Position numbers and translations under genes: made by a program
Notes under the pieces: model-generated
Databases searched by the model: none
Told to the model about the DNA's origin: nothing
The model's input: only the letters and a program-made list of their open reading frames with translations
Shown here: positions 1 to 64,000 of the stretch, piece after piece
How the letters are laid out: each line of letters starts with the position of its first letter
Numbering within the stretch: the stretch's first letter is position 1
Source of the DNA: Planctomycetota bacterium
Lineage (GTDB): Bacteria; Planctomycetota; UBA8742; UBA2392
Direction of reading: 5' to 3'
Length of the DNA: 64,000 bases
Assembly: GCA_020845475.1 (NCBI GenBank)
Contig: JADLFN010000026.1
Span: forward strand, 7,080 to 71,079

Positions 1-546
1 AGCCCTGATTTCGATGCGCCGATGGTGGCCGCAAACGAGATTCTCGAGTTCGAGGTTACAGTCACCGATGACCGCGGCGACTTCACGACCGATCGCGTGC
101 AGGTGACTGTCGAAGAGAATCTGCCGCCCGTCGCCAACGCCGGGCCCGACCAGGGCGCAATGTTCACGTCTCTCGTTCAGCTCAGCGGCAGCGGCAGCAC
201 GGACCCGAACACCGGCGACGTGCTGACGTATTCCTGGACGCAGATCTCCGGCACGAGCGTCACGCTCAGCGGCGCCAACACGGCATTCCCGTCGTTCGTC
301 ACCGGAGGCGGAGACGCGACCTTCGTGTTCGAACTGACCGTGACCGATTCGCTGGGCCTGACCTCGACCGATCAAGTGCGCGTGGTCGTAAACAAGAACG
401 GCATCATCGGCAGTGGGGGAGGCGGCGGCGACAAAGGCGACGGCGGCTGCACCACCGGCGAGTCAGTGGGGGTGCTGTGGCTTGCGGCCCTGATGTTGAC
501 GTTGCTGCTCAGGCGCACACGCAGGGAGAAGGCATTCGCACGTTGA
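1..546 (+). CDS. C-terminal part of a secreted PKD/Ig-like repeat protein ending in a Gly-run/Cys/TM/basic tail (5' end outside the window)
   Basis: The frame is open from base 1 (agc cct gat ttc ...); track ORF 22..546. Repeated modules EFEVTVTDDRGDFTTDRVQVTV and FVFELTVTDSLGLTSTDQVRVVV plus the linker PPVANAGPDQ are typical of PKD-type repeats. Tail: GSGGGGGDKGDGGC-TTGESVGVLWLAALMLTLLL-RRTRRE. Confidence 0.75.
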   Translation, partial: SPDFDAPMVAANEILEFEVTVTDDRGDFTTDRVQVTVEENLPPVANAGPDQGAMFTSLVQLSGSGSTDPNTGDVLTYSWTQISGTSVTLSGANTAFPSFVTGGGDATFVFELTVTDSLGLTSTDQVRVVVNKNGIIGSGGGGGDKGDGGCTTGESVGVLWLAALMLTLLLRRTRREKAFAR

Positions 547-1645: not shown

Positions 1646-2167
1646 ATGGCCGAATTTCGCCTGAGCATGCGCGCTATTGAACGCGGCGAGAAGCCGCGCC
1701 GTGCCCGCGCGCCCAAAGTGGTGAAACCGCCACGGCCGCTGAGCCAGTTGCGCAAGCGAGGCTACCCCAAAGATTGGGCCAAAATCAGCAGGCGCGTGCG
1801 CTTTGAGCGCGCCAAAGGCATCTGCGAGAACTGCGGCAAGCGCCACGGCGAGATTGTGTATCAGGGCCCGCAGGGATCATGGCAACGCGACGGCAAGTGG
1901 TTTGACGCCAACGGGAAACCCATCGATGCGCCGCCGCCGTGGCCAAGCCGCCAATGGTGGGACCATTTGCGGCACTACGGTGACCCGCCGCATATCAAGC
2001 GCGTCAAAGTCATCCTGCACACGGCGCACCTCGACCACAACCCAAGCAACTGCGCCGATGAAAACCTGGCCGCGTTCTGCCAGGCCTGTCATTTGAGATA
2101 CGACGAGGGCCTGCACCGCTGGACCTGGGGATCACGCGGGATCTCTCCCGCGGACAAAGAGTTCTAG
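1646..2167 (+). CDS. HNH endonuclease (phage-type, stand-alone)
   Basis: 173 aa. CENCGKRHG ... HTAHLDHNPSNCADENLAAFCQACHLRYD gives a Cys pair plus an H-N-H core. Confidence 0.8.
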   Translation: MAEFRLSMRAIERGEKPRRARAPKVVKPPRPLSQLRKRGYPKDWAKISRRVRFERAKGICENCGKRHGEIVYQGPQGSWQRDGKWFDANGKPIDAPPPWPSRQWWDHLRHYGDPPHIKRVKVILHTAHLDHNPSNCADENLAAFCQACHLRYDEGLHRWTWGSRGISPADKEF

Positions 2168-2229
2168 CATGGGCGGCGAAATTCAAATACGATCCGCAGC
2201 GATCTTGAACCACTCCAGGATAATCAGAG

Positions 2230-3303
2230 ATGGCAACAACTAAGCGTGAACTATTTATTCAGGACGAGCTTGGCGACGAACACGTAGTCGTCCCATTCAA
2301 GTACGCGATAACCAGTTACGGTGCCGACTACGACGTCCGCGGCATTGTGCACAGAATTAAGGACGAGGACATTTACGTACCGCGATTTCAGCGCGGCTAT
2401 GTGTGGAACTACCATCAAGCGTCGCGATTTATTGAGACGCTCTTGCTCGGCTTACCGGTACCGGGCATTTTCTTGGCCCGCGAGGCAGAGACAAATCGAC
2501 TTTTGGTCGTAGATGGTCAACAACGACTGAAGACCTTGCTCTTCTTCTATGAGGGCGTGTTTGGACCAAATGAGCGGGCGTTCTCGCTAGTTGACGTTCA
2601 GGAACAATTTGAAGGACTCTCCTACAAGAAGCTTGATCAGCAGGACCGCCGCCGCCTTGACGACTCAATCCTGCACGCCACGGTTATCAAGCAAGACGTT
2701 CCCTCGGAGGATGACAGTAGCATCTACCACGTGTTCGAGAGGCTGAACACAGGTGGTACGCGATTGCAGCCCCAAGAAATACGGGCCTGTATCTACCACG
2801 GAGAATTTAATGAAGCCCTAGATGATCTAAACAAGACGAAATCCTGGCGATCGATCTTTGGCGCTGTAAACAAACGGATGAGAGACAAGGAGTTGATCCT
2901 GCGCTACTTTGCGTTGCTTTACCACTCCAACAGCTATAAGCGCCCAATGGTCGAATTCCTCAACCGGTACATGGGTGCCAATCGACATCTCCAGAAGCAA
3001 CAGTTTGGACAACTAAGGACTGACTTCGTCGAAGTAATTGACATCGTATTCGAATCGGTCGGGAAACGTGCATTCAAGCCCGAGCGCGCATTCAATGCCG
3101 CCGTGTTCGACTCGGTCATGGTCGGCATTTCCAGGCGCCTGAGCAACGGGCGAATTAGCAAGATTACAGATGTTGGCAGCAAGTACCGTGAACTGATCAA
3201 AGATGCAGATTTTCAGGAGGTATGCAGCACTTCGACCTCTCAAGAGGATCGCCTCGAAAAGAGACTGAAGATCGCGACAAGGTACTTTCACGAGGTCGAT
3301 TAG
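2230..3303 (+). CDS. DUF262 (ParB/GmrSD N-terminal-like) domain protein
   Basis: 357 aa. PRFQRGYVWNYHQASRFIETLLLGLPVPGIFL...LLVVDGQQRLKTL matches the DUF262 signature including DGQQRL. No DUF1524/HNH C-terminal domain is seen. The gene is more AT-rich than its flanks by eye. Confidence 0.85.
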   Translation: MATTKRELFIQDELGDEHVVVPFKYAITSYGADYDVRGIVHRIKDEDIYVPRFQRGYVWNYHQASRFIETLLLGLPVPGIFLAREAETNRLLVVDGQQRLKTLLFFYEGVFGPNERAFSLVDVQEQFEGLSYKKLDQQDRRRLDDSILHATVIKQDVPSEDDSSIYHVFERLNTGGTRLQPQEIRACIYHGEFNEALDDLNKTKSWRSIFGAVNKRMRDKELILRYFALLYHSNSYKRPMVEFLNRYMGANRHLQKQQFGQLRTDFVEVIDIVFESVGKRAFKPERAFNAAVFDSVMVGISRRLSNGRISKITDVGSKYRELIKDADFQEVCSTSTSQEDRLEKRLKIATRYFHEVD

Positions 3304-3758
3304 TGCATCCGGACATAGTCGCGCATCAGTCACGTCTGAAATCGACTTTGGCCTTCGCACAGAAGTTAGTCGATGCCGAAGCACAGGGGCATTTTGCTCG
3401 TTACATTTGTGTTCTGACTTCTGGGTTTATCGAACAAGCGATTCGAGTGCATTTTGGTGCCTACGCCCAAATCCATGCCTCTCCTGAACTCGTTCGATTC
3501 ATCTCGAAGGAGTTGGAGACATTTCAAAACCCCAAAGTAGGCAAGGTCATTGCTCTCTTGCAAAAGTTCAGCGAGGACTGGGCGAGGGAAGTGCAAAGTG
3601 GAATCGAGGGACGCATCGGCGACCATATCGATAGTATCGTCGCTAGACGCCACGAGATAGCGCACGGAAAACCTAGCGGCCTCAGCTTGGGCACCGCTAC
3701 AGAGTACCTAAAGAGTGCGTTCGAATTCCTTGAGGTTATCTGCAGCAAGTGTGCCTAG
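3303..3758 (+). CDS. small HEPN-domain protein (MAE_28990-like; Rx4-6H motif)
   Basis: In-frame GTG at 3303 overlaps the DUF262 stop (TAGTG), suggesting translational coupling. The protein is all-helical with ARRHEIAHGKP near the C-terminal third, which fits the HEPN Rx4-6H motif. The track ORF starts earlier (3222) inside the upstream gene. Confidence 0.7.
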   Translation: MHPDIVAHQSRLKSTLAFAQKLVDAEAQGHFARYICVLTSGFIEQAIRVHFGAYAQIHASPELVRFISKELETFQNPKVGKVIALLQKFSEDWAREVQSGIEGRIGDHIDSIVARRHEIAHGKPSGLSLGTATEYLKSAFEFLEVICSKCA

Positions 3759-3974: not shown

Positions 3975-5237
3975 TTGAGGCTTTCCTTGGCTTCTAAATC
4001 GATCCTGGCGCTTTTCGCCCTGTGTGCCGCTTTGCTGGCGGCTTCCACGCTGGCTGCTGCTACTTTGAACGTGACGCTCAGCGGCGCCTCGCCCGCGAAC
4101 TTCGAAAACCGGCTCAGCGACACTTCCATTGAGGTCACGCGCTTTGTGCTAACCTCAACTGGCGCTTCCGTGGATTGTTCGGCCGTGACTATCACGTTTA
4201 CGAACCCAACCACGGCCGACGAAGCTTTCACCGCCGTGCGCGTGTTCTATGACGCCAACGGCAACTCCAGTTTCGAAGCCGGCGAAGAAATCGGCGTCGG
4301 CCAGGCGCCCAACGGCGTAGCCGCGACACTGTTGTTCACCGGCGCGTTCAGCGTGCCCACCAGTTCGCGCCTGATGCAGGTGATTGTCAACACCGGCGCC
4401 AATGTGGCCAGTTACGGCGACGGGTTTCGTTTCAGCATCGCGGCGGCTGGCGATATCACGCTGGCGAATCCCGGCACCGATAGCGTCACGGGTGCGTTTC
4501 CCGTTCAAGGGAACACGATCACCATCCGCAACAGCATGTCCAATCTGCTGGCGGGCACGGGCAATCCCGCATCGCCGCGCACCGTGGCTCGCGGAAGCAC
4601 CAACGTTGCCGGGGCGCACTTTCGCCTTGACTGTCTGGCGGCCGTGATTCCCGGCGAGCTGGTAGGTCTTGACCTGTCAAGCATCACCGTCAGCCTCAAC
4701 CTCGGCGCACCCGCCGATGCCAACGTGATTGCTTCGGTCAGCCTGTTCGGCGACGATTTCGATGCCGCGTTTGAGCCCAACACACAAGACCCGCTGATCC
4801 AGGCGCGCACCAGCGCCGACGTCGCCAAGTGGGCGGTGGCCGGCAGCACCTTGACGGTCATCTTCGACGGCGCGGCTGTCACGGCGCTTACTTCGATCAA
4901 TTCGGGCACCGTGCGCGCCTTCTGGATTGGCGTGAGTTTCAACAGCACGGCCGACGCTGTCGTGGAAGTGCTGGTCAATCGCACCGGAATTCTCGGGGCC
5001 GAAGGCGCAAGCGGCGATTTCCTGACCACCGCGATCACCAGCATCAGCGGCAACGTGATTACCGTCAGTGGAAGCGGCGGCGGCGGAGGTGACGGCGGCC
5101 AGGGCAATCGGCCCTCGGAAGAGGGCGGCTGTGTTGTCTCCCCCACTGGCTCATGGGCGCCGGGGATGTTGCTTTGCATGCTGGCGGCGGGCTTCTGGTT
5201 TGTGCGTAAGCGTAGCCGGCCCAATTCCACTACTTAG
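3975..5237 (+). CDS. secreted protein of unknown function with a Gly-run/Cys/TM/basic C-terminal tail
   Basis: Track ORF 3798..5237 (GTG). The signal-peptide-like stretch SKSILALFALCAALLAASTLAAA follows an in-frame TTG at 3975, so the start is uncertain. Tail: SGSGGGGGDGGQGNRPSEEGGC-VVSPTGSWAPGMLLCMLAAGFWFV-RKRSR. Confidence 0.6.
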   Translation: MRLSLASKSILALFALCAALLAASTLAAATLNVTLSGASPANFENRLSDTSIEVTRFVLTSTGASVDCSAVTITFTNPTTADEAFTAVRVFYDANGNSSFEAGEEIGVGQAPNGVAATLLFTGAFSVPTSSRLMQVIVNTGANVASYGDGFRFSIAAAGDITLANPGTDSVTGAFPVQGNTITIRNSMSNLLAGTGNPASPRTVARGSTNVAGAHFRLDCLAAVIPGELVGLDLSSITVSLNLGAPADANVIASVSLFGDDFDAAFEPNTQDPLIQARTSADVAKWAVAGSTLTVIFDGAAVTALTSINSGTVRAFWIGVSFNSTADAVVEVLVNRTGILGAEGASGDFLTTAITSISGNVITVSGSGGGGGDGGQGNRPSEEGGCVVSPTGSWAPGMLLCMLAAGFWFVRKRSRPNSTT

Positions 5238-5263: not shown

Positions 5264-6235
5264 ATGAAAGCCACAGCGTTGGGATTGCTGGCCTTGGCGA
5301 GCGTGTTGTTTGCTGGCTCGCTTAGCGCCGTCGCCGTCGGGGAAATGGGCCCCGATTTCAAGTTCGACAAGAGCTGGAACACAATTGAGGGCGCGACCAA
5401 GCTCTCTGACTACCGTGAGCGCGTGGTACTCGTTGAACGATGGGCCACGAACTGAAGCCCCTGCATGCGCGGGGTCCCGCACTTGAATGAACTGAACAAG
5501 AAATACCGCGAACGCGGCTTCGAGATTGTTGCCGTAAGCAGTGAAGCCGCCGGCACCATTGAAGACAAGATGGTCAAAGGGGCAAGCGCCTCCTTTGGAG
5601 TTGTGAAGGCCGATATTGCAGCCCTGTACCAGACCAACGGCATCCCCCACGGCTGGGTTCTTGACGCCGAGGGAAAGTGCATCTGGGAAGGCCACCCGGC
5701 CCAGTTGAACGATGCACAGATCGAAGAGTGGATCAAGGATCTCGCCCCCGGCAAGATCACGCGCGAGGTTCAAAAGCCGCTAAAGGCGTCCGTTGAGGCC
5801 TACAACAAGGGCCAGTTCGGAAAGGCCTTTGAAGCCGTGGCTGAGCACCTGACGTCTGAGGACGCAAAAGTCAAAGCTGACGCTGAATATGTCAACGGCG
5901 TGATCGAGAAGCGCAAAGCAGCAGGCGAGGCCAAGGCCAAGAAACTGCGCGACGCCGGCGATCTCGTCAAGCTGCTGCCGGTCCTTGAAGAAGAGGCCAA
6001 GGGCTGGGAAGGCAGCGAATACGGCAAGGCCTGCGGCGACGAAGCCAAGACGGTCAAGGCGAGCAAGGAATACAAGCTCTGCGCCAAAGCCGCCGACGCA
6101 TGGGCCAAGCTCGAGCCCAAGCTCAATGACCTTGCCGACGACAAAGCCGCCAAGGCGCTTGAGAAGTTCATCAAAGATTTCGCCGGAACGCCCCAGGCCA
6201 AGCTTGCCGAAGAGAGACTCAAAGACCTCAAATAG
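5264..6235 (+). CDS. periplasmic thioredoxin-fold (TlpA/ResA/redoxin-like) protein, predicted selenoprotein with UGA-Sec at 5453..5455 (U-S-P-C)
   Basis: ORFs 5264..5455 and 5465..6235 share a frame and are separated only by TGA agc ccc tgc. The read-through LSDYRERVVLVERWATN-U-SPC-MRGVPHLNELNKKYRERGFEIVAVS aligns with the FWATWCxPC redoxin motif. There is a signal peptide (MKATALGLLALASVLFAGSLSA) and a GGAGAGG Shine-Dalgarno-like sequence upstream. Confidence 0.8.
5458..5474 (+). promoter_or_regulatory. candidate bacterial SECIS-like hairpin 3 nt downstream of the UGA
   Basis: CCCCUG-CAUG-CG(C)GGGG: pairs 5458-5474, 5459-5473, 5460-5472, 5461-5471, 5462-5469 (GU), 5463-5468; loop 5464..5467. 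The same CUG-CAUG-CGG core follows the paralogue's UGA. Confidence 0.4.
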
Positions 6236-59316: not shown

Positions 59317-60513
59317 ATGCGCCTGGCATTGCTGGCAGTGCTGTTGGCTTCGCCGCTTCTTGCTCAATCGTCTGTGGCCACTGCGCCGAGTAACACCGAG
59401 GCCTTGGCGATCTACGAGATCAATCGCGCCCGCGCCAACCCGCAGGCCTATGACACCGCCAATTCGCTGGGCGGCGTCCTCACCGGCATCACGCCAGCCA
59501 GCCCGCTGGCGCTCAACGAGCGCCTGGTTACTTCTTCGCGCTTTCATTCAACTGAGATGGCCCAAAACGGCTACTTCGCGCACACCAGCGCGATCACGGG
59601 CAACCAGCCCAATCTTATGGTGCGCAACGCAGGCTACCCGCTGATCTCGAGCTTCCCCAACGCAGCGAATAATCTTGAATCGCTGGCATGCCAGTTTACG
59701 TCAAGCAGCGGCGGTATCAGCTATTCCGCACCCAACGCGATTCGCGCGCTGATCTTGGATAGCGGCGTGAGCCCGCCGGGCCACCGCTACCACCTGCTGG
59801 CATGGGGCGGATCGTCGAGCGAGATCAACTTCTACCGCCAGTTCCGCGAGATCGGCACGGGCTATGCCGAGGGTTTCCGCCCTGAAAGCCCCTACAGCTC
59901 CAGCACGCCGCCCGATGGCAGCGGCGCCTATTGGGCCATCCATACCGGCGTGCGCGACACAGCGGTCTATTTCATCTGCGGCTTTGTTTACAACGATGCC
60001 AACACCAACGGCCGCTATGACCTCGGCGAAGGCCTCAGCGGCGTGACCGTTTCGGCCAACGGCGGCGGAACGGTGACCGTGCCTGCGACCACCAACTCGG
60101 CCGGCATGTATTGGCTCAACCTCAACCCCGCCACCTGGACGTTGACTTGTAGCGGCGGAACTTTTGGCGGGCCCACTTACGCGCAAGTCACGCTGTCCAC
60201 GAACAACATCGCCGTCGATTTTCGGCAGGGCAACGCGAACGTCGACGTCAATTTCGGCACGTGGGGCGCGCTCACCGGCAGCGCCGTGCAGAACGGCAGC
60301 ACCAACCCCGGCCCCGGCAGCGGCGGAACGAGCGGCACGGGAAGCGGCGGCGGCTCGGGTGGCGGTGGTGGAGGTGGCGGCGGTTCCAGCGGCACCGGCG
60401 ATGCCGGCGGCGGTGGATGCTCGACGGATGAAACAGCGCTTGGATTTGCAGCCCTGCTTGCGCTGATTGCGTGTGCGCTGCAAGTGGCTACGCGCTTCCG
60501 CCGCTTGGCGTAA
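59317..60513 (+). CDS. secreted CAP/SCP-domain protein with a beta-sandwich module and a Gly-run/Cys/TM/basic tail
   Basis: Signal peptide MRLALLAVLLASPLLAQS. YEINRARANP...SSRFHSTEMAQNGYFAHTS fits a CAP/SCP domain. GFVYNDANTNGRYDLGEGLSGVTV is carboxypeptidase-regulatory-like. Tail: GGGGGGGGGSSGTGDAGGGGC-STDETALGFAALLALIACAL-QVATRFRR. Confidence 0.75.
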   Translation: MRLALLAVLLASPLLAQSSVATAPSNTEALAIYEINRARANPQAYDTANSLGGVLTGITPASPLALNERLVTSSRFHSTEMAQNGYFAHTSAITGNQPNLMVRNAGYPLISSFPNAANNLESLACQFTSSSGGISYSAPNAIRALILDSGVSPPGHRYHLLAWGGSSSEINFYRQFREIGTGYAEGFRPESPYSSSTPPDGSGAYWAIHTGVRDTAVYFICGFVYNDANTNGRYDLGEGLSGVTVSANGGGTVTVPATTNSAGMYWLNLNPATWTLTCSGGTFGGPTYAQVTLSTNNIAVDFRQGNANVDVNFGTWGALTGSAVQNGSTNPGPGSGGTSGTGSGGGSGGGGGGGGGSSGTGDAGGGGCSTDETALGFAALLALIACALQVATRFRRLA

Positions 60514-62044
60514 TGATTTCGAGCGCATCGCCGGCTTCAAGCCTGCCGCTGCATTTTGGCGGCAGGCGTTGCTTTTTGCCGCCGCGTATCAGCGCGTTTT
60601 CCCCCACCGCGCCATCGCTTGCGCCGTTGTAGCCGCGCGGGGCGTGCTTGCGGCGTTCCGTGAGCAAGCCGAACTCGCAGGGCACCAGTGCGCGGATGCG
60701 GCGAATGACGCCCGCGCCGCCGTGCCCGACTCGCGAAGATTCCTCGGCGCGCATGCCATACTCTTCAACGCGCAGCGGGTAAGCGTGCTCCAGCGCTTCG
60801 ATCGGCGTGTTGAGCGTGTTGGTCATGTGCGAGTGCGTGGCGCTTGCGCCAGCATGTTCGCGCGTCGCGCCGCAGCCGCCCGCGATGGTCTCGTAATAAG
60901 TGAACGGCTTATCGCCCCCACCGCCGATGGTCACGTTGTTCATCGTGCCCTGGCTTTGCGCGCAGCCTGTCCTGAGCAAAGTCGAAGGGCCTCGCCCGCC
61001 TGCGGCCTGTGAGAGCGCGCTGAGGCACACGTCCACGATGCGCTGGCTGGTTTCCACGTTGCCGCCCGCGACGGCGGCGGGCCTACGCGCGTTGACGATG
61101 CTGCCTTCGGGAGCAATCACCTGGACACACTCAAAGCAACCCGCATTAACGGGCGGCACGGGATCACAGAAACACAGCGCCGCGTAGTAGCAGGCGCTCT
61201 GCGTAACGGCGAGCACGGCATTGATGCCGCCGCGAACCTGTGGCGCAGAACCCGTGAAGTCAAACGTCAGGCGATTGCGCGCTACCGTCAGCTTGAGCTT
61301 GATCGGAATGTCCGTTGCACCCGCGCCATCATCGTCCATGACATCCTCGGTGCGATAGACGCCGCGTTTGAGTTTGGCGAACGAGTGCCGCATCAGCGAG
61401 CGGCTGTGTTCAAGCAATGCGTCGCAACGGCCTGCAAACTCACGCAACTCGCGGCCGAAGATAGCAACCATGCGCGCGGCGCCGCGTTCGCAAGCCGCCC
61501 TCTGGGCGCCGATGTCGCCGGCTCGTTCCTGCGACGTGCGCGTATTGGCAAGAATCAAAGACAGTGCAGTTTCTTCGAGGAGCATAGGCGGAATGACGAG
61601 CCCTTCCGCGATCAGGTCCGTTTGCGGAGACATGCTGCCGGGCGCGCCGCCGCCAATGTCAGCGTGGTGGGCGCGATTAGCCGCAAAGCCAATGCACCGT
61701 TTGCCCGCAAACACAGGCGCAACAATCGTGATGTCCGGCAGGTGTGTGCCGCCGTCGTAGGGGTCATTCACTACCGCAAATGACCCTCTCGTAAGACGAT
61801 TGCCCAGGGAACGCACGACTGCACTCACGCTTGCGGGCATGCTTCCCAAATGCACGGGCAAATGCGCGGCTTGGGCCAGCAGGCGGCCCTTCGCGTCGAA
61901 GAGCGCGCATGAGTAGTCCTGGCGCTCCTTGATGTTGGGCGAGAACGCGCTGCGCTTGAGCACTTCGCCCATTTCCTCGGCGGCCCCCACCAGCGCGTGG
62001 TGGAACACGCTGATCTCCGCTGATTGTGCAATGTCGCGAGTCAT
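60488..62044 (-). CDS. hyuB: hydantoinase B/oxoprolinase family protein
   Basis: Start at ATG 62044 (MTRDIAQSAEISVFHHAL...SPNIKERQDYSCALFD...). It matches the HyuB family pattern throughout. Confidence 0.85.
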   Translation of the reverse strand: MTRDIAQSAEISVFHHALVGAAEEMGEVLKRSAFSPNIKERQDYSCALFDAKGRLLAQAAHLPVHLGSMPASVSAVVRSLGNRLTRGSFAVVNDPYDGGTHLPDITIVAPVFAGKRCIGFAANRAHHADIGGGAPGSMSPQTDLIAEGLVIPPMLLEETALSLILANTRTSQERAGDIGAQRAACERGAARMVAIFGRELREFAGRCDALLEHSRSLMRHSFAKLKRGVYRTEDVMDDDGAGATDIPIKLKLTVARNRLTFDFTGSAPQVRGGINAVLAVTQSACYYAALCFCDPVPPVNAGCFECVQVIAPEGSIVNARRPAAVAGGNVETSQRIVDVCLSALSQAAGGRGPSTLLRTGCAQSQGTMNNVTIGGGGDKPFTYYETIAGGCGATREHAGASATHSHMTNTLNTPIEALEHAYPLRVEEYGMRAEESSRVGHGGAGVIRRIRALVPCEFGLLTERRKHAPRGYNGASDGAVGENALIRGGKKQRLPPKCSGRLEAGDALEIITPSGGSA

Positions 62045-62097
62045 CTGCAGCTCCGTGGCTGGCGACGCCCGTCGCCAGCAAACTAGGGCCGGAGGCC

Positions 62098-64000
62098 CTA
62101 GCTCCGTGTCAATAACATCGCCCCGCTCTTTTTCACTTCGAACTTCCAGCCCTTTGCCAGCCACAGGCAGCTCGAAAGTTCCGTGACGATCGCCGGGCCT
62201 CGCAGCTTGAAACCCGCAGGCAAGGCGTCGCGTTCGTACACGGGCACGCCCTTCCACTTCTTCGCGCGCGGCTTGCCCGTCGGCAACTTCGGCGCAGACA
62301 GCCTTGCTAACGTTTGCGCGCTGACACGTAGGCGCACGTTCACAATCTCTGCGCGGCGCTCAGGGTACGCGTCACCGAATTCCTTCTTGTGGGCCGCGTC
62401 GAAGAGTTTTCGCCAGTTGGCCTTGAGCGGCACGTTCAACTCAAAGCTCTGCCCGGCATAACGCGCGTCGAGCGAAGCCGCGTTTTTGAATGGGCCCTTC
62501 AAGCCGCATGCGCGCAATTCGCTGCTGCCGCGCAACTCCATCTCCCTTGCTGCGCGCTGTGCACGGGCGAAGCATTTTCGGTCGGCGTCGCTCAGCAGCA
62601 GCGTGCGAGAGAAATCGCGCGAGGCTGGCGTTTGCAACATGCCCAGCGCGCACAGCAGGCCGGGATCGCGCGGCACGAGAATCGTGTCCATGTCGAGCAG
62701 TTCCGCCAGCTCGCAGGCAATCAGCCCACCCGCGCCGCCAAAGGGCACCAGCGGCAAGCCTGAGGGCGAGATGCCGCGCTCGACGGTGACGCGGCGCAGC
62801 GCGCGTTCGATGCCGGCAAGCGCGACGCGCACGATGGCCGTGGCAGTCTGCAGGGGCGAGGCATACCTCGCCCCTACCTGAGACACGGCTTTTTCGGCGA
62901 GCGCATGATCCAGTTCCAGCGTGCCACCAAGTTTCATCGTTTGCGGCACACGTCCGAGCACCACCAGCGCATCCGTCAGCGTGGCCTGATTGCCGCCTCG
63001 CCCGTAGCACGCTGGACCTGGTTGCGCGCCCGCGCTTTGTGGGCCGACATTCAACGCGTCCGCCGCGTCGATCCAGGCCAGTGAGCCCCCACCGGCGCCA
63101 ATGGTGTGAATGTCGAGCGACGGCGTGCGCAGCGGCAGGCCCGCGATCTCCGTGACCGCGCGCAGGCGCGGCTCGCGCGTTACCAACGAAACATCGGTGC
63201 TCGTGCCACCCACGTCAAAGGCAACGCCGCTCTCGCAACCGTCCGCGTCCAAAGCCGCGCGCACGCCCGCGATGCCGCCGGCGGGTCCGCTGAGCGCAAG
63301 TTTCACGGGCTCGCGCGCCGCAATCTCCGCGGGCAACCAGCCCCCCGCGCTGTGCATAATCACCACGCGCGCGGGCGAAACGCGCTCTTCAAGCGCGGCT
63401 ATGTAGCTGCGCAAAAGCGGCATCAGGCCCGCATTGGCGGCGGTAACGAGCGAGCGCTCGTATTCGCGGAATTCCGGCGCCAGCTCGCTCGATAGCACGA
63501 CCGGAATGCCGAGCTTGTTCAAGGCTTGGCCCAGAGCGCGTTCGTGATTCCCATTGGCGTAGCTGTGCAGCAGGCACACACCTGTGGCTTGCGGCTTCAG
63601 CGCGGCTACGGCGTTGCACACCGAGGCGATCTCGCGCTCACCCAGAGCCGACTCCACTTCGCCGTGCGGACCTAGCCTCTCCTCAACTTCAAGTCGATGC
63701 GAGCGCGGAACAAGTTCGTTGCGCTGGCGCGGGGCAAGAGAATACAGGTCGCGCGGGTCGCGGTTCTGGCGGCCAATGGCCAGCACATCGCGCATGCCCT
63801 TGGTCGTGATAAACGCGATTGGTGCGAGTTTGCCTTCGAGCAGCGCGTTCGTTGCCGTGGTTGTTCCGTGTATCAGCAAGTCCGCACCGCCAAGTTGCGC
63901 CAACGCCTGCGCCACGCCGCGGCTTGGATCGTCGGGTGTCGTCGGCACTTTGGCGCGTGTAAGCCGGCCCCCGTCGAGCCGAACGGCATCAGTGAAGGTG
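62098..64000 (-). CDS. hyuA: hydantoinase A/oxoprolinase family protein (5' end outside the window)
   Basis: The frame stays open beyond 63948 to the window edge; the reverse complement of the last bases reads TFTDAVRLDGGRLTRAKVPTTPDDPS, the usual HyuA N-terminal region. Confidence 0.85.
   Translation of the reverse strand, partial: TFTDAVRLDGGRLTRAKVPTTPDDPSRGVAQALAQLGGADLLIHGTTTATNALLEGKLAPIAFITTKGMRDVLAIGRQNRDPRDLYSLAPRQRNELVPRSHRLEVEERLGPHGEVESALGEREIASVCNAVAALKPQATGVCLLHSYANGNHERALGQALNKLGIPVVLSSELAPEFREYERSLVTAANAGLMPLLRSYIAALEERVSPARVVIMHSAGGWLPAEIAAREPVKLALSGPAGGIAGVRAALDADGCESGVAFDVGGTSTDVSLVTREPRLRAVTEIAGLPLRTPSLDIHTIGAGGGSLAWIDAADALNVGPQSAGAQPGPACYGRGGNQATLTDALVVLGRVPQTMKLGGTLELDHALAEKAVSQVGARYASPLQTATAIVRVALAGIERALRRVTVERGISPSGLPLVPFGGAGGLIACELAELLDMDTILVPRDPGLLCALGMLQTPASRDFSRTLLLSDADRKCFARAQRAAREMELRGSSELRACGLKGPFKNAASLDARYAGQSFELNVPLKANWRKLFDAAHKKEFGDAYPERRAEIVNVRLRVSAQTLARLSAPKLPTGKPRAKKWKGVPVYERDALPAGFKLRGPAIVTELSSCLWLAKGWKFEVKKSGAMLLTRS

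Follow-up and report, generated by a model that had tools for sequence, protein, structure and literature searches.

Cys-type C-terminal sorting tags have been described for Myxococcota, Bradymonadales, a few Proteobacteria, Synergistetes and Thermococcales. One of these, MYXO-CTERM, was curated by Haft as limited to Myxococcota and Bradymonadales (10.1101/2023.06.07.544157); its acyltransferase awaits identification and Lgt has been named the 'leading candidate' (PMC11980579). Here we describe a Cys-containing tail found at the C-terminus of three secreted proteins (P1, P2 and P3) encoded on a 64,000-nucleotide stretch of a Planctomycetota genome, hereafter the window (G000:C26:7080-71079), together with an Lgt paralogue, LgtC, whose gene lies beside genes for such tails. 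The genome comprises 4.27 Mb in 94 contigs, with 61% G+C, and is 77% complete. Planctomycetes go unmentioned in two accounts of the myxosortases (10.1101/2023.06.07.544157; PMC11980579), and we found no description of the tail either there or in literature searches.

A C-terminal tail specific to one Planctomycetota family

The initial annotation of the window had proposed a tripartite C-terminal sorting signal shared by three proteins with different cargo. All three open reading frames (ORFs) do end in a Gly/Asp-rich linker, a Cys signature, a helix of ~20 residues and an Arg cluster (n = 3/3; Table 1), at the positions originally given, although the last five residues of the P1 basic end had been omitted. 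The cargo parts are mutually unrelated, being a subtilase in P1 and CAP-like in P3, whilst P2 has no confident domain and its GEVED match is weak. P1 also matches the model for a 'myxosortase-dependent M36 peptidase' locally (NF038112, 103 bits). We rejected this assignment because the match spans the PKD repeats and tail only and the protein is an S8 subtilase.

A hidden Markov model (HMM) built from 33 tails picked by regular expression was searched against the 24,545 ORFs of the whole genome. It returned 46 matches of at least 20 bits, of which 45 end no more than 15 residues from the C-terminus, and neither reversed ORFs nor ORFs with the last 60 residues shuffled gave a match of 15 bits or more. 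The window tails score 34.7 bits (P1; 43.9 bits with A2), 33.8 bits (P2, whose signature is the most divergent among the three) and 36.3 bits (P3). Taking the regular-expression scan and the HMM together, the genome encodes ~50 tail-bearing proteins. When 50 tails are aligned the Cys is the sole invariant column; Gly occupies -1 and -2 in 37/50 tails each, S or T follows the Cys in 43/50, T, A or S stands at +2 in 47/50, G, S or D at +3 in 40/50 and E at +4 in 25/50. A Trp at +8 to +10 opens the helix in 37/50 tails and the distance from Cys to protein end is 26-36 residues. The consensus around the Cys is thus G(-2) G(-1) C [ST] [TAS] [GSD] E. Most tail proteins have an evident N-terminal signal peptide, a lipobox-like N-terminus being present in 1/50, and their cargo includes subtilase, purple acid phosphatase, N-acetylmuramoyl-L-alanine amidase, beta-helix/fn3, cadherin-like and CAP-like proteins. 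Plain anchors lacking positional conservation can therefore be ruled out, since the G-G-C frame is conserved and members are many genome-wide, both being tests that the initial annotation had named. We also observed one tail-like segment (34.7 bits; G000:C35:410-1576) that ends 27 residues before the stop codon and so is not C-terminal; a frameshift, or extension by read-through, may be responsible.

We scanned the 50 tails one by one against NCBIfam at E ≤10. The best-matching curated model was MYXO-CTERM (TIGR03901.2), with 39/50 tails and a best E of 1.6e-7, followed by JDVT-CTERM (NF033191; 19/50), the older GC_trans_RRR model (16/50), Synerg-CTERM (4/50), PEP-CTERM (TIGR02595; 4/50, weakly) and GlyGly-CTERM (TIGR03501; 1/50, E = 0.13). 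However, in a six-frame genome search only 14 of ~50 tails exceeded the 20-bit cut-off of TIGR03901. P1 (9.3 bits), P3 (14.2 bits) and P2 (no match) all fall below it. Therefore, the tail lies in the neighbourhood of MYXO-CTERM, in agreement with the initial annotation, and the curated model captures it in part. The poly-Gly run and the spacer after the Cys had been said to depart from known versions, and they do: the signature here is G-G-C-S-T-G-E behind a poly-Gly/Asp linker.

To define the distribution, the tail profile was searched in 23 species genomes of the window's GTDB family, in the rest of its 30-species class and in an even phylum sample of 401, with up to 19 candidates scored per genome in the phylum-wide search. 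All 23 family genomes carry 23-58 tails each. The two genomes of the sister family have 1-2 tails each, the other five genomes of the class 0-5, and the ~375 genomes from other classes at most 3, with any at all in just 14 genomes. The tail is specific to this one uncultured family, in which it tags ~1.5% of genes and so defines much of the surface proteome (proteases, phosphatases, amidases and adhesins).

A helix followed by an Arg cluster is by itself a stop-transfer anchor, and no recognised sortase of any class was found. The tail might then be a plain unprocessed anchor of a type I bitopic protein, its Cys kept for a disulfide, a metal contact or similar. We consider this improbable in view of an invariant Cys and a G-G-C-[ST]-[TAS] frame whose spacing to the helix is constant across 50 unrelated proteins, of significant similarity to curated Cys-type sorting models, and of the linkage of an lgt gene to tail genes. 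Moreover, a tail present by the dozen in each genome of one lineage, and essentially nowhere else, is a pattern typical of dedicated sorting systems. The tail is very probably a Cys-type sorting signal related to MYXO-CTERM.

Processing enzymes and the lgtC locus

Searches for processing enzymes covered the genome of the window and 30 relatives, 14 of which are at least 90% complete. The myxosortase core (NF040914, cut-off 100 bits) is above cut-off in 0/31 genomes, with best scores of 25 bits in the window's genome and 39 bits among relatives. Against the rhombosortase model (TIGR03902, cut-off 84 bits) the window's genome yields generic rhomboids only, at 42 and 26 bits. Exosortase (PF09721) turned up in 0/21 genomes from the two nearest families, and in four members of the phylum that are more distant. 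Thus, the description of the tail as 'exosortase-type' holds for its architecture but not for the enzyme, the absence of a sortase-like gene from the window was correctly noted, and the co-occurring exosortase, rhombosortase or myxosortase that the initial annotation suggested looking for genome-wide has no counterpart above cut-off in this genome or its relatives.

One explanation for these absences would be an ordinary PEP-CTERM, GlyGly-CTERM or canonical MYXO-CTERM system whose enzyme is missing from an incomplete metagenome-assembled genome. The completeness of 77% and the 14 tails above the MYXO-CTERM cut-off fit this explanation. However, the absence of the myxosortase core extends to all 31 genomes, the well-completed relatives included, and exosortase is missing throughout the two families; the rhomboids fall far short of their cut-off and the few tails matching PEP-CTERM or GlyGly-CTERM do so weakly. 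We therefore judge it highly improbable.

The genome encodes three generic CPBP/Rce1-family proteases (PF02517), here named after their contigs (Table 1). All score below every Mrt cut-off (NF040914, 25 against 100 bits; MrtJ, NF033192, 35 against 75; MrtS, 29 against 130). The C8 protein can be aligned with the archaeomyxosortase MrtA model over almost its whole length, at 58 bits where the cut-off is 200. Full-length orthologues of the C39 type occur in 17/18 family genomes (35-49% identity) and in both sister-family genomes (~30% identity), with a match to the core domain only elsewhere. Gene context gives C39 no link to the tails: its neighbours in 13 genomes are housekeeping genes (tadA, HU, an RDD protein, a MEMO-like protein, acpS and carB), with no tail gene inside 10 kb. 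The contexts of C8 and C68 in the window's genome are uninformative. Hence CPBP proteases are present, yet no particular one is tied to the tails. That a CPBP cuts the tail is possible, by analogy with myxosortases, though somewhat doubtful.

A published model that invokes an 'Lgt-like acyl-transferase' (PMC11980579) led us to search the same 31 genomes for Lgt (TIGR00544), a connection that the initial annotation had not made. Genomes of the window's family carry 3-4 copies and those of the sister family 2-3, against 1 in most other relatives. LspA shows no expansion alongside Lgt and is single-copy in all genomes searched. In a maximum-likelihood tree built from 62 Lgt sequences, those of the family fall into three well-supported orthogroups. 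LgtA is the canonical form and has sister-family orthologues; LgtC (365-390 aa) has sister sequences in the sister family; LgtD (~490 aa), with an insert and a long C-terminal extension, is confined to the window's family in our sample.

The presence of both Lgt and LspA raises the alternative of a release signal, in which Lgt lipidates the Cys and LspA cuts before it, freeing the cargo and leaving a lipidated stub in the membrane. Gly at -1 and -2 is consistent with a lipobox, where small residues are tolerated ahead of the Cys. However, no hydrophobic helix lies N-terminal to the tail Cys, the -3 residue is G, D or E instead of L, V or I, and LspA has not expanded with Lgt. Moreover, MYXO-CTERM was cut distal to its Cys in experiments, anchoring the protein (PMC11980579). 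Release is most unlikely.

Tail genes were mapped in 20-kb intervals around each Lgt copy. In 14/14 family genomes a same-strand tail gene ends within ~110 bp upstream of lgtC, often as one of two to four consecutive tail genes; within the window's own genus, lgtC is flanked by tail genes on both sides. Of four further public LgtC contigs, one pair has the small tail gene upstream at 89 bp and the other pair has a tail gene 1.7 kb downstream only. A same-strand tail gene is thus found within 2 kb of 18/18 LgtC loci, directly upstream in 16/18, against a background of at most ~1.5% of genes. By comparison, no confident tail gene lies within ~9 kb of LgtA (0/13) or LgtD (0/15), a difference with a Fisher probability of 2e-11 that is uncorrected for shared ancestry. 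In the neighbouring family a sister-clade lgt is preceded, 63 bp upstream, by a gene for a He_PIG-type tail protein ending ...GAAGCSLATGQHGVVAMAFLLAIALGAGLLRRRRTAA, which belongs to a different cargo family from the lgtC neighbours.

The gene immediately upstream of lgtC encodes a ~180-aa protein whose signal peptide is of type I and which lacks a lipobox. In 8/11 genomes the tail Cys is its only exported Cys and would thus be the only possible site if LgtC acts on this neighbour. Directly downstream of lgtC, in all 14 mapped family loci except G010, where it was undetected, lies a gene for a membrane-anchored protein that has roughly six CarboxypepD_reg repeats and carries a PDZ domain at its C-terminus. 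It is present as two tandem copies in the window's genome, and most loci from other genera continue with a class-I methyltransferase. The membrane-anchored protein may be part of the same module or pathway as the tail and LgtC. Separately, a genus-specific LgtA duplicate in the window's genome (G000:C51:22860-23801) follows, after 43 bp, an amidase gene whose product carries a tail (C51:23853-25799). Its orthologue in a same-genus genome has no tail-gene neighbour, and the arrangement is possibly due to chance.

LgtC passes the TIGR00544 cut-off (140.3 against 118.9 bits) and aligns with PF01790 over positions 11-238 of 240. With residues numbered on E. coli Lgt by alignment to 5AZB, it retains G99, H103, G104, R143, N146, G154, Y235, R239, E243 and R246, with E151 as E or D, and H103, R143, N146, Y235 and R239 are invariant in 14/14 LgtC sequences; from these residues it looks catalytically competent. 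It differs from LgtA by Y26 to F (11/14), G27 to H, S101-F102 to T-I, G105-L106 to [MV]-I and G145 to A (14/14). The HGGL motif of E. coli Lgt was proposed by Mao et al. as a peptide-binding site (PMC4728403), and substitutions in and around this motif fit a changed acceptor specificity. More widely, the Lgt of the window's class is of the 'FHGG / GRxGNFxNGELWGR' type, whereas the single Lgt of most other sampled Planctomycetota (L087-L099) is of the 'FYGG / GRxGCFLNGCCxG' type, without H103, N146 and E151; these are two deeply different Lgt types in one phylum.

A search of 5.8 billion proteins placed 45 clusters with LgtC at 48% identity or more, after which scores drop from 255 to 158 bits and the next match has 31% identity. 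So sharply bounded a group offers no independent distant lineage in which to test the linkage. Among the matches listed, a scan of GTDB contigs found no Cys tail near 78 other Lgt loci (at most 37% identity to LgtC), and a scan of metagenome contigs added one near-identical LgtC locus only.

A predicted lipidation pathway

On balance we favour a reading in which a tail of the MYXO-CTERM kind tethers dozens of secreted enzymes and adhesins to the membrane via an LgtC pathway. Proteins would be exported through Sec by the N-terminal signal peptides visible in their sequences. Judging from the tail architecture, the C-terminal helix and the cytoplasmic Arg cluster would then hold the protein in the cytoplasmic membrane, placing the invariant Cys ~8 residues outside the bilayer. 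LgtC would next transfer diacylglycerol to this Cys, as gene linkage and the conserved catalytic core suggest. An intramembrane protease, by analogy with myxosortase, would remove the helix and leave a C-terminal lipid anchor; the CPBP/Rce1-type proteins C39 and C8 are the most likely candidates for this step. Transfer to the outer membrane or cell surface may follow. Within this pathway, that LgtC is the enzyme lipidating the tail Cys seems to us close to an even call. More tentatively, LgtC may have been neofunctionalised for a C-terminal Cys in inverted topology, in which case the family would run a complete and separately evolved C-terminal lipoprotein pathway of tail, LgtC and a non-myxosortase protease.

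Several observations weigh against such a pathway. With tails removed, 31/33 genuine tail proteins beside lgtC (three further ORFs, spurious regular-expression hits, were excluded) belong to one family of HYDIN/VesB-like Ig module repeats, and flanking synteny around lgtC is conserved across the family, downstream genes included. Thus, the linkage may represent a single inherited event, one ancient operon, in which case the Fisher value overstates independence. Moreover, most tail genes, those of P1, P2 and P3 included, are far from any lgt. LgtC also has F at the Y26 position (11/14) and A at the G145 position, and Y26F and G145A are inactive in E. coli Lgt (PMC4728403). On the protease side, neither the tail genes nor lgtC have a linked protease gene, no CPBP gene adjoins a tail gene, and the candidates, C39 and C8 among them, are far under all Mrt cut-offs without support from gene context, in a genome that is itself incomplete. 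Lastly, E. coli has the housekeeping Lgt only, yet MrtX processed a MYXO-CTERM there (PMC11980579), so a dedicated Lgt paralogue is not required in principle.

The same E. coli result, the single neighbour family with its conserved downstream synteny and the distance of most tail genes from any lgt would all fit lgtC being a passenger in an inherited block, with the tail Cys lipidated by LgtA or an unrelated enzyme and LgtC and LgtD serving subsets of N-terminal lipoproteins. Such a passenger would not readily account for tail neighbours at 18/18 LgtC loci but 0/28 LgtA and LgtD loci, nor for a partner protein without a lipobox and usually without another exported Cys. The sister lgt of the other family, preceded by a tail gene whose product belongs to another cargo family, likewise argues against it, as does the clustering of LgtC-specific substitutions at the proposed peptide-binding site. 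We therefore hold the passenger explanation to be rather unlikely, and retain a role for LgtC in tail lipidation as the preferred reading.

The role of Lgt is hard to test since Lgt is essential. A separate, probably non-essential Lgt paralogue that shares an operon-like block with its putative substrate, a 180-aa single-Cys protein, would provide a direct and small experimental system. If the pathway is correct, LgtC would be the first acyltransferase to be identified for a Cys-type C-terminal sorting system of any kind, and the substrate range of the Lgt family would be extended. For MYXO-CTERM, Cys lipidation is the step whose enzyme is acknowledged to be missing, and the orthogroup-specific Lgt linkage bears on the question as stated in PMC11980579.

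Other window features and related sorting systems

Two same-strand ORFs of the window (5264-5455 and 5465-6235, +) are one stop codon apart, the first encoding a signal peptide and a thioredoxin-like start and the second the remainder. Between dapA and P2, three genes (1646-3758, +) resemble a small defence or mobile island. On the opposite strand to P3, the 589-aa ORF overlaps the end of the P3 gene by ~25 bases; judged by eye, the minus-strand pair to which it belongs (60488-63999) looks like hydantoinase B/A (oxoprolinase-like).

Table 1. Positions of tails, host ORFs, enzymes and other features; plain numbers are window positions, and positions with a contig prefix are those of the contig.
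Feature	Position	Strand	Description
P1 ORF	1..546	+	3' end of 1296-aa secreted subtilase; gene start upstream of window, G000:C26:3735; Peptidase_S8, P-domain, K319L-like PKD repeats, tail
P1 tail	406..543	+	linker IGSGGGGGDKGDGG 406-447; Cys codon 448-450; signature CTTGE 448-462; helix SVGVLWLAALMLTLLL 463-510; basic end RRTRREKAFAR 511-543
P2 ORF	3798..5237	+	secreted protein, at most 479 aa; probable true start internal, before ...KSILALFALCAALLAASTLAAA
P2 tail	5088..5234	+	linker GDGGQGNRPSEEGG; Cys codon 5130-5132; CVVSP; helix TGSWAPGMLLCMLAAGFWFV 5145-5204; basic end RKRSRPNSTT
P3 ORF	59317..60513	+	398-aa secreted protein; signal peptide MRLALLAVLLASPLLAQ; YkwD/CAP-like region and CarboxypepD_reg/SdrD_B-like domain
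P3 tail	60376..60510	+	linker GGGSSGTGDAGGGG; Cys codon 60418-60420; CSTDE; helix TALGFAALLALIACALQVAT 60433-60492; basic end RFRRLA
lgtC, window's genome	C49:87950-88924		between tail genes C49:89179-92577 and C49:83227-86310
Downstream of lgtC	G000:C49:78402-82475; L043:5841-8072		membrane-anchored ~735-aa protein
LgtD	G000:C55:67605-68576		14 orthologues in relatives, e.g. L044:9350-10879
CPBP C39	C39:38998-39732		244 aa; 64.8 bits; EEFWFR, FAVAH, HVAGN intact
CPBP C68	C68:30375-31241		288 aa; 58 bits; all three motifs (EExxxR, FxxxH, HxxxN) intact
CPBP C8	G000:C8:34469-35275		268 aa; 43 bits; motifs degenerate (VEFFFR; HIAVAF)
HNH-like Cys-rich protein	1646-2167	+	
357-aa protein	2230-3303	+	
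178-aa protein	3222-3758	+	
Overlapping ORF pair	60488-62257 and 62098-63999	-	589 aa; at least 633 aa, open at window end

Among described systems, the N-terminal lipoprotein pathway (Lgt, LspA, Lnt) shares with the proposed one a bona fide Lgt homologue with catalytic Arg, His and Tyr, and a predicted acceptor Cys preceded by small residues. It differs in that the acceptor Cys here precedes its membrane helix, an inverted topology, and is located at the protein C-terminus, without L, V or I at -3, and in that LspA is not duplicated. LgtC itself deviates from the housekeeping enzyme at Y26/G27, at G145 and in the HGGL motif. GlyGly-CTERM/rhombosortase and PEP-CTERM/exosortase resemble the present system in their three-part architecture and in the logic of many cargos for one enzyme, and the HYDIN/VesB-like Ig module of the lgtC-linked proteins is a further likeness on that side. 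However, their signatures lack an invariant Cys, their models barely match the tails and both enzymes are missing from the window's family. The JDVT-type and Synerg-type tags, and those of MrtA, are likewise Cys-containing and tripartite; the cargo-beside-protease gene pair that defines JDVT-CTERM/MrtJ is absent here.

The closest relative is MYXO-CTERM with its myxosortases (MrtX, MrtC, MrtP). Both systems have a tripartite tail of signature, transmembrane helix and Arg-rich end with an invariant Cys after Gly, both place it on dozens of unrelated secreted cargo proteins per genome, and both are predicted to follow the same logic of Cys lipidation and then helix removal. They differ in signature, the generic GCGC of MYXO-CTERM being replaced here by G-G-C-S-T-G-E behind the poly-Gly/Asp linker, and in host, Planctomycetota lying beyond the curated range of Myxococcota and Bradymonadales (10.1101/2023.06.07.544157). 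No myxosortase core domain accompanies the tail in the 31 genomes. For MYXO-CTERM, we found no report of a dedicated, tail-linked Lgt paralogue in 10.1101/2023.06.07.544157 or PMC11980579. We regard the tail as a lineage-specific relative of the MYXO-CTERM surface-anchoring tag of myxobacteria.

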